From a virus: DNA of 56,409 nucleotides. Numbering within the stretch: position 1 is the stretch's first letter; each line of letters opens with the position of its first letter. The notes under the pieces are model-generated. The model did no database searches, had not been told where the DNA came from, and worked only from the letters and a program-made list of their open reading frames with translations. A program made the position numbers and the translations under genes. The stretch lies in IMG/VR virus record IMGVR_UViG_3300031159_000001, one strand, 5' to 3'. Of the stretch, positions 16,863-40,713 are shown in pieces.

Positions 16863-16901
16863 GATAAATAAAAGCCCCGCCCAGCAAAGAGCTGAGCGGG
16901 G
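16863..16901 (-). terminator. Terminator after the endolysin (bidirectional)
   Basis: 11-bp stem ccccgcccagc/gctgagcgggg with T-rich tracts on both strands. Confidence 0.75.
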
Positions 16902-18486: not shown

Positions 18487-18502
18487 GAGGATCATCCTTT
18501 CT

Positions 18503-18535
18503 GGAAAAAGTTAAACCCTCCGTGTTGGAGGGTTT
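18503..18535 (-). terminator. Terminator after the secreted-protein moron
   Basis: The minus strand reads AAACCCTCC-aacac-GGAGGGTTT followed by aaCTTTTTCC. Confidence 0.65.
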
Positions 18536-18563
18536 AGTAAACGCACCGCAAGGAAGTCATGTC

Positions 18564-32766: not shown

Positions 32767-32840
32767 GGTTTTGACCTCCGTTTTTAAGCCTGGGTCGGCT
32801 GATTCCTCGATCGCAGTTTAACGTCATGCAACGGTTAGGA

Positions 32841-32869
32841 CAAAAGAAAAAGCCGCTCAATTGAGCGAC
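32841..32869 (-). terminator. Terminator hairpin element, copy A (29 nt identical to 35809-35837)
   Basis: The minus strand reads GTCGCTCAATTGAGCGGC followed by TTTTTCTTTTG. Confidence 0.7.
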
Positions 32870-32871
32870 CT

Positions 32872-33240
32872 TTACTTGCGATATAGTTTGATTAGCGCAT
32901 CCGTTATCATGTTCAAGGCTTGTTCTTCTGCGTCCTGCAGCGCTCCTTCAAGTTCCTCTGTGAACTGCCAAAGATGAATGTGCAACAACTCATGAACCAG
33001 GGATTTCTCCATATCCTGCGGATTCAAATTGTCAGGATGGTAGTCGATAGGATCGATCACTCTCAAACGCGCGAGTTTATGCTGCACATTGACGTTGATC
33101 TCTGCGTTCGATTCCTTCGTCAGCATTTGATTTTCGCGAACAATCGAAACGCGAACATCCCAATCCTGCAGCCGCAGAATCTTTTGCCACTCCGCGCACT
33201 TGGCACGAAGCTCGTCCTCCGTATAAATGACTGGATTCAA
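32872..33240 (-). CDS. Small HExxH protein (putative zinc metallopeptidase-like)
   Basis: SLVHELLHIHLW motif. AT-richer than its neighbours. Sits between the minor head protein and the scaffold. Confidence 0.6.
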   Translation of the reverse strand: MNPVIYTEDELRAKCAEWQKILRLQDWDVRVSIVRENQMLTKESNAEINVNVQHKLARLRVIDPIDYHPDNLNPQDMEKSLVHELLHIHLWQFTEELEGALQDAEEQALNMITDALIKLYRK

Positions 33241-35799: not shown

Positions 35800-35808
35800 C
35801 CCTTTCGG

Positions 35809-35837
35809 CAAAAGAAAAAGCCGCTCAATTGAGCGAC
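35809..35837 (-). terminator. Terminator hairpin element, copy B
   Basis: Identical 29-mer caaaagaaaaagccgctcaattgagcgac (+ strand). Confidence 0.7.
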
Positions 35838-35842
35838 TTTCA

Positions 35843-39073: not shown

Positions 39074-39094
39074 GATCACCACCTCGCAAGGCAA

Positions 39095-39125
39095 ATAAAA
39101 AAGCGCCCGAAGGCGCCTTTATTTC
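39095..39125 (-). terminator. Terminator after the AT-rich orphan gene
   Basis: gcgcc-cgaa-ggcgc stem with T-rich tracts on both strands. Confidence 0.7.
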
Positions 39126-39520
39126 TGCGGATTCGTATTATTTTTTATGAAGTTGGTTAAAAACTCATTGGCTTCTGACCATTTTTCTCTTAACTTATTG
39201 CATGCTGTGTACAACCATGAGGTATTATTATCTTTATCCTTTACGAAATTTCTCAATTGAAAAACGAAATCATCGTACTCAATGATGAATGGATTCAATT
39301 CATAGTGATCTAATCCTTTATCATGTAAAAGTCTTTTAAATTCAATATAATATTGCTGTGACAGTTGTAAAAACTGCAGCGATAAGATGTATTGTTCCTC
39401 GCCATCAAAATTGCCATTACCGAGAACCTCATATGCATCCTCGGCAAATATCTTTGCTTTCTCCATTGCATCCTGCAAATACAACGCGTCGTTCAAAATT
39501 TCATTTTTTTCTATTTTCAT
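39119..39520 (-). CDS. Hypothetical AT-rich protein (133 aa)
   Basis: ATG 39520 lies 9 nt after GGAGGG. Strongly AT-rich compared with its neighbours. No recognisable domain. Confidence 0.65.
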   Translation of the reverse strand: MKIEKNEILNDALYLQDAMEKAKIFAEDAYEVLGNGNFDGEEQYILSLQFLQLSQQYYIEFKRLLHDKGLDHYELNPFIIEYDDFVFQLRNFVKDKDNNTSWLYTACNKLREKWSEANEFLTNFIKNNTNPQK

Positions 39521-39680
39521 GTCGATCTTCCCTCCTTGCTCACATAATTCGACACAAGGAGGATTTTTCCTGTCTTGGATCAATAGTAGAGTCTTCTGCA
39601 GCTCTCCCGCCGCTCTCTCCGGTTCCGCGGCTCCGGCCCAGCAAACGGTGCCAACCGCCGCACCAGTCGATAGATCCACC

Positions 39681-39806
39681 TCACGGCCGCACCACCCCCG
39701 TTCGCTTGTCGCGCCGGTACTTGTTGACCGACCAGATGATGCGATGCTTCACGCTGATCCAGCCCGCGAAATTGGGCGGAACAGCGATTTTGTCCTTTTT
39801 CTTCAC
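39681..39806 (-). CDS. Possible very basic 41-aa protein
   Basis: GTG 39806 lies 8 nt after GGGAGG. VKKKDKIAVPPNFAGWISVKHRIIWSVNKYRRDKRTGVVRP. Confidence 0.35.
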   Translation of the reverse strand: MKKKDKIAVPPNFAGWISVKHRIIWSVNKYRRDKRTGVVRP

Positions 39807-39984
39807 AATCAATTCCTCCCTGCATGTGATGTGCCGGCACTTCCGAACGATTCGCGCGGCCGGCTGGCGCCCGGGTCCTGCCCATTCACCGCTCCGGTCG
39901 CGGTCGAAAGGAGGGAGCCGCACCTGTCTCGCTTTGCCCCGCGAACAGGCTTCGGTCATGCGGCAATTTGGGGATGAGCAGGCG

Positions 39985-40014
39985 AAAAGAAAAAAGCCGC
40001 CGATCATCGGCGAC
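39985..40014 (-). terminator. Strong terminator closing the late leader (element copy C, related to copies A and B)
   Basis: The minus strand reads GTCGCCGA-tga-TCGGCGGC followed by TTTTTTCTTTTCG. It shares the aaaagaaaaa(a)gccgc...gcgac flanks with copies A and B. Confidence 0.8.
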
Positions 40015-40190
40015 CCTAAATGCAATTTGGAAGTTTAATCCCGACCGTCACACCCGTGGACCCTATATATCCGCTGCCGAGCGGCTTGATTTGGCATGAC
40101 AGGCGGGATTCGCCCGCCGTCCCGGGATGCCGCGTCACCGGCCGCCTAGGACAGACAGTTCAGCGGCGCGGCGGGCAAATGCTTCACTGA
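40015..40190 (-). ncRNA. Structured GC-rich non-coding leader RNA of the late operon (function unknown)
   Basis: No credible ORF. Several helices are visible, including mutually exclusive pairings of 40113-40118 with 40102-40107 or with 40169-40176. Confidence 0.35.
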
Positions 40191-40226
40191 TATCATAGTA
40201 GCACGGAATTTCCCAAAAAGTCGGCC

Positions 40227-40262
40227 ATAATGCGGACAAAATGCAGACATAGAGCGGACATG
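40227..40262 (-). promoter_or_regulatory. Direct repeats ATGTCCGCTCTATG / TTGTCCGCATTATG upstream of a TACTATGAT box (candidate ArpU-dependent late promoter)
   Basis: Read on the minus strand. 22-nt phasing. No sigmaA -35 is present. Confidence 0.35.
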
Positions 40263-40266
40263 ATTT

Positions 40267-40713
40267 TCAGTCTTCTTTCAGCACCACCAGTCCCAGGGCT
40301 GCCGCCAACCTGTAGATGGCGATCGACTTGATCCGTCGATAGTGCCGGGTGCTGTACCCGAGAGCTGTAGCCACATCGACATCAAGCACATTGTCTTCGT
40401 CCAGGTAGCGCATCCGGATCAGCTTTTGCTGCCGGGCACCCAGCCGGCTGACCGCCTTCTCTACGCGCTCGACGTGCTTTCGGCGCCGCTCCTGCTCGTC
40501 CACATTCAGGATGGCAATTTTCTCTACCTGCGACACGACCGAATTCGTCTGGCCATGGTAGCGCGGTTCGTACAGCGGCGTGACCTTCTGTTCCAGCGGG
40601 ATGTATTCGGTAACTTTGTACTCCCGGGCCAGCAGCAGATACCGCTCGACCGCCTCTTTCGTCTTTTCTTCGTCGATCTCGTATATGCCGAAGCAAAGTT
40701 GTTGTGCGCCCAT
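40267..40713 (-). CDS. arpU: ArpU-family late transcriptional regulator (sigma region-4-like)
   Basis: 148 aa. RLGARQQKLIRMRYLDEDNVLDVDVATALGYSTRHYRRIKSIAIYRLA matches ArpU/RinA-type regulators. Confidence 0.85.
   Translation of the reverse strand: MGAQQLCFGIYEIDEEKTKEAVERYLLLAREYKVTEYIPLEQKVTPLYEPRYHGQTNSVVSQVEKIAILNVDEQERRRKHVERVEKAVSRLGARQQKLIRMRYLDEDNVLDVDVATALGYSTRHYRRIKSIAIYRLAAALGLVVLKED

Follow-up and report, generated by a model that had tools for sequence, protein, structure and literature searches.

Layout of the locus

The region examined here follows the arpU gene in a 56,409-nucleotide (nt) stretch of viral DNA, IMG/VR record IMGVR_UViG_3300031159_000001 (the whole stretch is referred to as the window), and is an ArpU-controlled late promoter unit of a Paenibacillus-type temperate prophage, i.e., of the Ltr/ArpU type, with the late genes on the minus strand. 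A first-pass annotation of the window had placed here a late-operon leader whose GC-rich RNA, with mutually exclusive helices, would render the transcription complex resistant to terminators. Most of what was observed is real, and the region represents a variant of the known Ltr-type late promoter, but the interpretation given to the GC-rich RNA is not supported.

The arpU gene closes the early module. A gap of 460 nt separates its stop codon from the next real open reading frame (ORF; GTG start at 39806), and, as annotated, no credible ORF lies within it. A small tyrosine recombinase-like gene, terS (PF10668) and terL are found 3' of arpU, in the downstream position already assigned to them. 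The unit comprises the following elements.

40267-40713, minus strand: arpU, late transcriptional regulator (Ltr superfamily), final gene of the early module
40219-40261, minus strand: four ArpU boxes with 11-nt phase, ATGTCCGCTCT, ATGTCTGCATT, TTGTCCGCATT and ATGGCCGACTT, defined by sequence and by conservation in all relatives
40203-40195, minus strand: extended -10 element TGCTACTAT (TGcTACTAT), -35 absent
40028-40177, minus strand: variable RNA cargo, modules A and B, with indel boundaries from blastn and alignment
39985-40017, minus strand: T0, intrinsic terminator, AGGGUCGCCGAUGAUCGGCGGCUUU followed by a U-tract; 11 pairs, 3-nt loop, free energy (dG) of -15.2 kcal/mol, tail UUUUUUCUUUU

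ArpU is recognized by NCBIfam TIGR01637 (81 bits, cut-off 43) and by PHROG 248, annotated as transcriptional activator (E = 9e-31). In an AlphaFold model of the protein (predicted local distance difference test score, pLDDT, of 81) the C-terminal 60-70 residues superpose on sigma region 4 domains with a root-mean-square deviation of 1.5-2 Å. ArpU was also considered as a Q-like or a full sigma protein, and both a PDB sequence search and a fold search yielded sigma region 4 only. Relatives of arpU were collected from Paenibacillus, Cohnella and Thermobacillus genomes (7 loci), from viral contigs (13 loci) and from metagenomes (13 loci), and more were added by exact look-up of homologous proteins; the comparison set comprises about 25 related loci, denoted by L-numbers.

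A late promoter with four phased ArpU boxes

The box array begins 5 nt past the arpU stop codon, and the box cores, of the TGTCCG/TGGCCG type, occupy positions 40260-40255, 40249-40244, 40238-40233 and 40227-40222. Direct repeats had been recognized at this place in the first-pass annotation, which counted two boxes with a 22-nt phasing; the repeats exist, but as four boxes with an 11-nt phase. The TACTATGAT box of the same annotation is part of the extended -10 element, and its judgement that a sigmaA -35 is lacking and that the arrangement fits an ArpU-dependent late promoter is borne out. In 17 of 17 loci in which both elements can be read, 24 nt separate the T of the last box from the TG of the extended -10 element, corresponding to 27 nt to the hexamer; across these loci ArpU identity ranges from 57 to 99%. 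The 27-nt spacing from box to hexamer places the boxes at about -72, -61, -50 and -39 relative to the predicted start, with the array spanning -72 to -34 and the fourth box overlying the -35 position; the start of transcription itself is predicted near 40188. In most loci, a second -10-like hexamer (TAnnnT) is found 2-4 nt past the -10 element, at about -4 to +2.

The sequence of the boxes tracks the regulator: TGTCCG/TGGCCG boxes accompany ArpU proteins of 57-99% identity, TGGCGG boxes are found in L020 (ArpU 41%), TTGCAGA in phage Paisley (43%), and TGGCAGT belongs to RinA of phi11. When the leader was compared with those of the relatives by blastn, the box array was the sole conserved part at only about 60% ArpU identity. 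About 20 independent relatives show boxes, -10 element and T0 in the same fixed geometry, a recurrence that exceeds chance. Repeats at this position are proven Ltr binding sites, and Ltr proteins bind such repeats and suffice for late activation (PMC3753634).

The promoter is coupled to a terminator

The strong terminator with which the annotated leader ends is present as T0. It is the first intrinsic terminator after the -10 element in 20 of 21 informative loci, at 23 to about 470 nt from that element, and in relatives that lack the cargo the hairpin begins about 19 nt past the predicted start. Promoter and T0 occur together in L001 at a distance of 2.3 kb from arpU, which has a hairpin of its own there; T0 thus goes with the promoter and not with arpU. 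The stem varies among loci by compensatory and wobble (G-U) substitutions (GGUCGCCG/CGGCGGCC; GGUCGUCG/CGGCGACC in L012; GGUUGCCG/CGGCGACC), and the compensatory changes argue for selection on a hairpin in the late-strand RNA. The U-tracts of some relatives are weak, e.g., UUUUCGUCUCU in L011 and UUUAUUGUU in phage TP901-1.

With T0 located between the predicted start and the first late gene, late expression would require read-through of T0. In L011, L162, L017, L020, L005, L029 and L001, the first late gene has its ribosome-binding site and start codon within 10-40 nt of the U-tract of the T0-type hairpin, which leaves no room for a second promoter after T0.

The GC-rich RNA is a variable cargo

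The segment between promoter and T0 has no counterpart in L008-L010, L026 and L167 (ArpU 95% identical), L162 (94%), L011 (82%) and L014 (80%). In the cargo-less loci GAAGAATTGCAAT links the start region straight to T0, and the same promoter and the same T0 hairpin are retained; besides T0, the late operon of the cargo-less L167 has three further terminator-like hairpins, one of which is a homologue of the window's terminator T3 at the same place (16867-16882). Other relatives carry a longer cargo, of about 400 nt in L012, L013 and L027 (ArpU 85%) and in L023 and L024 (99%), and of about 750 nt in L159 (93%). All versions have the first roughly 150 nt, i.e., modules A and B, in common; at the 3' end of the longer ones, acceptor stem, class-II D arm and T arm make up a tRNA-like domain. 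Neither a match to the D-arm pattern GGCGGAAUAGGUAGACGC at up to 3 mismatches nor a convincing T-arm match is found in the window, and ARAGORN reports no tRNA in the window or in nine relatives. To judge from the alignments, the window retains as its cargo the 5' part of a larger structured leader RNA, of which the 3' tRNA-like domain, present in intact relatives, has been lost here. The cargo of L163 (3022-3170; ArpU 98% identical), which is like that of the window in its 5' half and like that of L159 in its 3' half, looks like a recombinant, and one pair of its P1 helix is broken.

Absence of the cargo from some relatives, and its length of 400 or 750 nt in others, argue for a variable cargo in a slot between promoter and terminator and against an element of the put or EAR type. 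The copy in the window is optional and truncated, and comparison with the cargo-less loci shows it to be dispensable in relatives. A mobile repeated element was considered for the cargo, but its pattern is not recurrent, and no terminal inverted repeats and no clear target duplication were seen; a coding function was likewise considered, and comparison of the window with L012 shows no conservation of the short ORFs on either strand. A 24-nt cargo pattern was found across viral contigs in the L012/L013 contigs only, and the leader DNA has no match among 50,697 phage records. Searches against Rfam 15, as proposed in the first-pass annotation, gave no match in the window at the gathering score (best E-value in 39600-40400, 7) and nothing for L012 or 20 further relatives, the sole match being DUF3800-VII in L030.

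Several helices had been noted in the GC-rich segment. The z-score of the minimum free energy (MFE) of the cargo is -1.84, and 8 of 200 shuffled sequences fold as well, so that the fold is not unusual. Covariation, also proposed previously, was evaluated for modules A and B on five closely related sequences, which offer too little divergence for a verdict; the covariation term is -0.12, one pair being compensatory and one broken, the latter in the recombinant L163. For the mutually exclusive helices, the complementarity is real, but competition between them is not borne out. The MFE structure contains the 8-bp pairing of 40176-40169 with 40119-40112, the register 40172-40167/40134-40129 has a probability of 0.02, and the local hairpin 40118-40113/40107-40102 has a probability of about 0. 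The one informative substitution, in L159, has a compensating change in the 8-bp helix; the local hairpin, where it stays uncompensated, is weakened by it.

A tRNA-like RNA family in relatives

The tRNA-like domains of the longer cargo versions belong to an RNA family that is represented at L012:4803-4923, L023:3805-3925, L015:4655-4800 and L159:3573-3710, and at about 45 further viral loci (e.g., L145:5677, L113, L126 and L094). The family is absent from Rfam, and its members are not called by ARAGORN. Its layout consists of a 7-bp acceptor stem, the class-II D arm GGCGGAAUAGGUAGACGC, a variable insert (9-203 nt) that replaces the anticodon and variable arms, the sequence CAUG, and a T arm (loop UGCAAAU) that is joined by a linker of 1 nt to the 3' acceptor strand. 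Among loci, covariation is seen in the acceptor and T stems, and many copies lie 10-40 nt 5' of a ribosome-binding site. The D-arm pattern is matched by ordinary tRNA-Leu genes too; these lack the linker, and their loops read UUCxAxU.

Further terminators in the late operon

All four terminators that the first-pass annotation had listed farther downstream were found, at 39120-39099 (T1), 35841-35806 (T2), 32873-32838 (T3) and 18536-18512 (T4), within the elements listed here:

39090-39120, minus strand: T1, closes the moron cassette; dG -13.3
35806-35841, minus strand: T2, T0-type internal terminator of the late operon, GUCGCUCAAUUGAGCGGC followed by a U-run, ahead of the portal gene
32838-32873, minus strand: T3, near-identical copy of T2, ahead of the scaffold and capsid genes
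18500-18536, minus strand: T4, terminator-like hairpin inside the late region; dG -16.0, U-run beginning 2 nt past the stem

T2 and T3 are 97% identical over 32 nt (repeat family D13). Hairpins of the form GUCGC..GCGGC followed by a U-run occur at three sites of the window, T0, T2 and T3, all on the late strand, versus 0.06 expected. Like T0 and the hairpins of many relatives, T2 and T3 have a GUCGC/GCGGC stem with a conserved U-G wobble, and this shared stem suggests more than a generic terminator. The late transcript had been said to have no room for internal promoters. This fits T2, T3 and T4, where Shine-Dalgarno-like purine runs (AAAGGGGTGAT, AAAGGATGAT) lie a few bases past the U-tract (tails and repeat family D10), but not upstream of T1, where a promoter-like motif is found at 39571-39546 on the minus strand.

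Motif X and two short genes downstream of T0

The interval between T0 and the moron holds four further features:

39805-39984, minus strand: motif X, multi-helix RNA with helices H1-H5, directly 3' of T0 and ending at the Shine-Dalgarno sequence of ORF1
39681-39806, minus strand: ORF1, 41-residue basic protein (..NFAGWISVKHRIIWSVNKYRRDKRTGVVRP), first late gene, GTG start
39580-39684, minus strand: ORF2, 34-residue arginine-rich peptide VRWIYRLVRRLAPFAGPEPRNRRERRESCRRLYY, start overlapping the ORF1 stop (GTGA)
39546-39571, minus strand: promoter-like motif AGGAAAAAT-N11-GTCGAATT, ahead of the AT-rich moron 39523-39119

RNAalifold predicts five helices in the 180 nt of motif X, which contains the invariant loop GGGGCAAA, the likewise invariant anti-Shine-Dalgarno-like junction CUCCCUCCUUU and a hairpin with the loop GACCGGA, whose invariant form is GACCNNA. 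A covariance model (R1) of six close copies detects further copies in L020 (ArpU 41%), L003, L032 and L015 with E-values of 1e-4 to 0.03, all on the late strand; no Rfam family corresponds to the motif. Pairing extends to 95.4% of cells in the alignment, and both sides have changed in 23 of the 44 pairs, pair counts that none of 500 shuffles reaches (slid controls, 1-6) and that lean high, as the alignment was fitted to the model. Helix H1 of L020 is formed by a wholly different complementary sequence (GCCAAUCCU/AGGAUUGGC). L011 and L162 lack motif X; L003, L032 and L015 have it 5' of the T0-type hairpin.

ORF1 is kept in L010, L011, L012, L014, L019, L023, L159 and L162; as read from the aligned DNA, its differences from L012 are mostly at third codon positions or synonymous, and they include a TCG to AGC serine switch. 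ORF2 is kept in L011, L012, L014, L017, L023, L159 and L162, and its stretch PRNRRERRE resembles, by our reading, arginine-rich RNA-binding motifs. No Pfam or PHROG family matches either product. The first-pass annotation had recognized neither a Q-like nor an N-like protein; with respect to Q this agrees with our scan of eight neighbouring ORFs, out of all ORFs in the window, which gave no Q-family match, whereas the statement about N overlooked the arginine-rich ORF2. The co-occurrence of ORF2 with GUCGC..GCGGC hairpins is imperfect and is broken by L019, L015 and L003.

The promoter-like motif, which we take to be of the sigmaH type from the published Bacillus consensus, has one match in the window versus 0.01 expected. 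It recurs at the same place in L003 (4845-4870), L008-L013, L026 and L027 (e.g., L010:4880-4905, L011:4817-4842 and L012:5390-5415), and precedes whichever gene comes after ORF2 or motif X. The moron that follows (39523-39119) is closed by T1, and GC content falls to 30-36% across 39100-39500.

Relation to known late promoters and leader RNAs

In the Ltr-type late promoters described for RinA of phi11/80alpha, ArpU of phiFL2A, LtrC of phi55/Phi13 and Alt of TP901-1 (PMC3152322, PMC3753634, PMC13123087), the regulator closes the early module as it does in the window, repeats follow right after the regulator stop, a -10 element stands without a -35, packaging and morphogenesis genes lie downstream, and a terminator precedes the first late gene. 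The hairpin figures in these papers as the terminator of the ltr gene, and its place downstream of the late start is not described there; nor are the variable cargo, motif X, or ORF1 and ORF2 of the window described for Ltr systems in the literature examined. In our literature search, neither antitermination by Ltr proteins nor tRNA-like late leaders turned up, nor did any test of an ArpU-modified polymerase, of partial termination, of motif X or of the ORF2 peptide in read-through.

Two studied phages display the same arrangement. TP901-1 (L166) has four Alt boxes and a -10 element 27 nt past the last of them, in agreement with the published interval of -76 to -32 from the mapped start, as quoted in PMC3152322. 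Its 480-nt leader contains a tRNA-Lys (Rfam, 55.3 bits) and a tRNA-like element (2135-2209 and 2289-2376), and this tRNA cargo is followed by a hairpin with a U-rich tail and then by the terS ribosome-binding site. In phi11 (L165, 1343-1490), TATTAT stands 27 nt past the second of two TGGCAGT boxes; a leader of 60 nt leads from it to a terminator of 10 bp, after which comes terS. The site bound by RinA is more than 155 bp upstream of the 5' end mapped for terS, with a terminator between rinA and terS (PMC3152322). The box-adjacent -10 element of phi11, at the 27-nt spacing and upstream of the rinA-terS terminator, bears on this distance between the RinA site and the terS 5' end.

The lambdoid PR'-tR' unit, which is controlled by Q and yields the 6S/StxS RNA (PMC7547250), is similar in that all late transcription has to pass an intrinsic terminator close behind the late promoter, in that the short terminated leader RNA may function itself, and in that more terminators lie in the long late operon. 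It differs in that the window has no Q homologue or Q-like fold (among the eight ORFs scanned and in the ArpU model), that its promoter is activator-dependent whereas PR' is constitutive, that it is not known to have a Q-binding element or a proven pause close to the promoter, and that the TAnnnT hexamer seen in most loci, at about -4 to +2 and not in the transcribed region, lies elsewhere than the pause elements of lambda, 82 and 21.

HK022 put, Bacillus EAR, pLS20 conAn2 and Tn916 canT (PMC11658703) share with the window a structured RNA in the leader of a long operon of a mobile element, upstream of several intrinsic terminators, and the cargo of relatives, with its 400-750 nt, is comparable in length to canT (452 nt). 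Unlike these RNAs, the cargo of the window is truncated and dispensable in close relatives, and it has no similarity to them in sequence or to their models. Motif X is a better structural candidate for an element of the put/EAR type than the cargo, but it sits after T0, outside the span of the first-pass annotation, and is missing in some relatives. The slot also recalls the RNAs of Weinberg et al. 2017 (DUF3800-I to XI, drum, skipping-rope and FuFi-1; PMC5737381), orphan structured RNAs that end in a Rho-independent terminator and among which several different structures appear to serve the same role (PMC5737381). The cargo of the window matches none of these families. L030, however, contains a DUF3800-VII RNA (1243-1356; 42.7 bits, gathering score 36.2) between its ArpU promoter and a T0-type hairpin and may give genomic context for this orphan RNA, a link that is drawn from one locus.

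Mechanism and alternative explanations

The best explanation for the whole is a unit of late promoter and T0 with an optional cargo slot, in which the cargo is not the read-through device; we hold this to be probable. ArpU would bind the four phased boxes (-72 to -34) through its sigma-region-4-fold C-terminal domain and replace the missing -35, whereupon the host sigmaA polymerase would use the extended -10 element and start near 40188. T0 would halt transcription that arrives from upstream, and probably part of late transcription as well, and so insulate the late genes. The interval from start to T0 would be a slot that phages fill with nothing, short hairpins, DUF3800-VII RNA, tRNAs or tRNA-like RNAs; in the window it would hold a 150-nt GC-rich remnant, and transcripts ending at T0 would be an RNA of about 200 nt. 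The cargo would not let polymerase pass T0 or the later terminators. As candidates for the agent of read-through we rank first an ArpU-modified polymerase or partial leak, second motif X and third ORF2.

Several points weigh against this explanation. The start near 40188 and the efficiency of T0 are predictions, the fold search gave no similarity of ArpU to Q, and the cargo-less relatives come from metagenomes and may not be viable. The cargo could still function in this phage in ways beyond what comparison reveals. Furthermore, in phi11/80alpha a 5' end resistant to terminator exonuclease (TEX) was mapped downstream of the terminator, 23 bp before terS (PMC3152322); if it is a true start, the box-adjacent promoter may not make the late mRNA there.

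Among the alternatives, a distinct possibility is that no special antitermination exists, T0-T4 being partial terminators and mRNA-stability hairpins that set expression ratios and guard processed mRNA from 3' and 5' exonucleases, with the cargo as a small RNA or a decaying remnant. The position of the hairpins directly between genes, with ribosome-binding sites right after them, is in agreement with this, as are the weak U-tracts of L011 and TP901-1 and the observation that the single-promoter late operon of 80alpha yields only 2-4-kb RNAs, for which processing was suspected by the authors (PMC3152322). Five hairpins of -13 to -16 kcal/mol in series, several of them with long U-tracts, would however greatly reduce expression of the distal tail and lysis genes unless read-through is high, and the rinA-terS terminator of phi11 blocked read-through from a plasmid promoter (PMC3152322).

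It is unlikely, though worth considering, that motif X is a processive antitermination RNA that protects polymerase at T1-T4 and, in L003, L032 and L015, also at the T0-type hairpin. Its conservation, its several helices supported by covariation, its constant location on the late strand and 5' of late-operon terminators, and its invariant loops, which suggest a binding surface, count in favour of this. However, L011 and L162 lack motif X and keep T0, L011 having a T1-like terminator in addition; in the window it cannot act on T0; translational control would account equally well for its CCUCCUUU junction and for the CCC that pairs with the Shine-Dalgarno sequence of ORF1; and its pair counts are inflated by the fitting of the alignment to the model.

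The mapped 5' end of phi11/80alpha, together with the description of the hairpin as the ltr terminator (PMC3753634), could also mean that T0 ends only the early arpU transcript and that the real late start lies beyond it. We judge this quite improbable. In the seven lineages listed above, T0 and the start codon are too close together to accommodate a promoter, the 27-nt spacing is invariant across three regulator families, and the mapped start of TP901-1 adjoins the boxes, upstream of both the tRNA cargo and the hairpin. The arpU gene of L001 has its own hairpin, with T0 at 2.3 kb together with the promoter, and motif X is GC-rich and has no -10-like element.

Very unlikely, too, is the explanation advanced in the first-pass annotation, i.e., that the GC-rich RNA at 40177-40028 acts in cis on polymerase and confers resistance to T0 and the later terminators in the manner of put, EAR or canT. 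Its position between promoter and first terminator is that of canT (PMC11658703), it is GC-rich with long helices, and larger versions occupy the same place in relatives. The close relatives L010/L167, L162, L011 and L014 nevertheless lack it while keeping promoter and T0, and internal terminators are seen in L167 and one in L011. The copy in the window is truncated, and neither Rfam, with no match to EAR or any other family, nor the z-score of -1.84 nor the single covarying pair lends support to it. A riboswitch or attenuator, in which a ligand or factor acting on the GC-rich RNA would decide on the formation of T0, can be set aside as extremely unlikely, since, despite the classic layout of a structured leader directly 5' of a terminator, the segment is absent or replaced in relatives and thus provides no conserved aptamer, T0 folds independently in both the MFE and centroid structures with no predicted alternative pairing with its arms, and no Rfam family matches.

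Implications for Ltr-type late control

The interest of the locus lies in the conserved coupling of promoter and terminator and in the cargo slot, and not in the cargo of the window, which is an optional passenger. A wider reading, which we offer tentatively and regard as doubtful, is that the Ltr-type late promoters of ArpU, RinA and Alt are promoter-plus-terminator units at which the regulator-loaded polymerase, functionally Q-like without homology and possibly helped by motif X or ORF2, would become terminator-resistant, other transcription would stop at T0, and the interval from start to T0 would be a slot for non-coding RNAs, including the widespread tRNA-like family. If true, this would explain why the RinA site and the terS 5' end mapped downstream of it are more than 155 bp apart. 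Ltr regulators govern packaging and lysis in a large share of the temperate phages of Firmicutes, including those that mobilize staphylococcal pathogenicity islands. The slot between promoter and terminator would be a predictable site for phage non-coding RNAs, i.e., tRNAs, tRNA-like RNAs, DUF3800-VII RNA and motif X, and if the late promoter is always coupled to a downstream terminator, late control in these phages would include a read-through step that is missing from current models.

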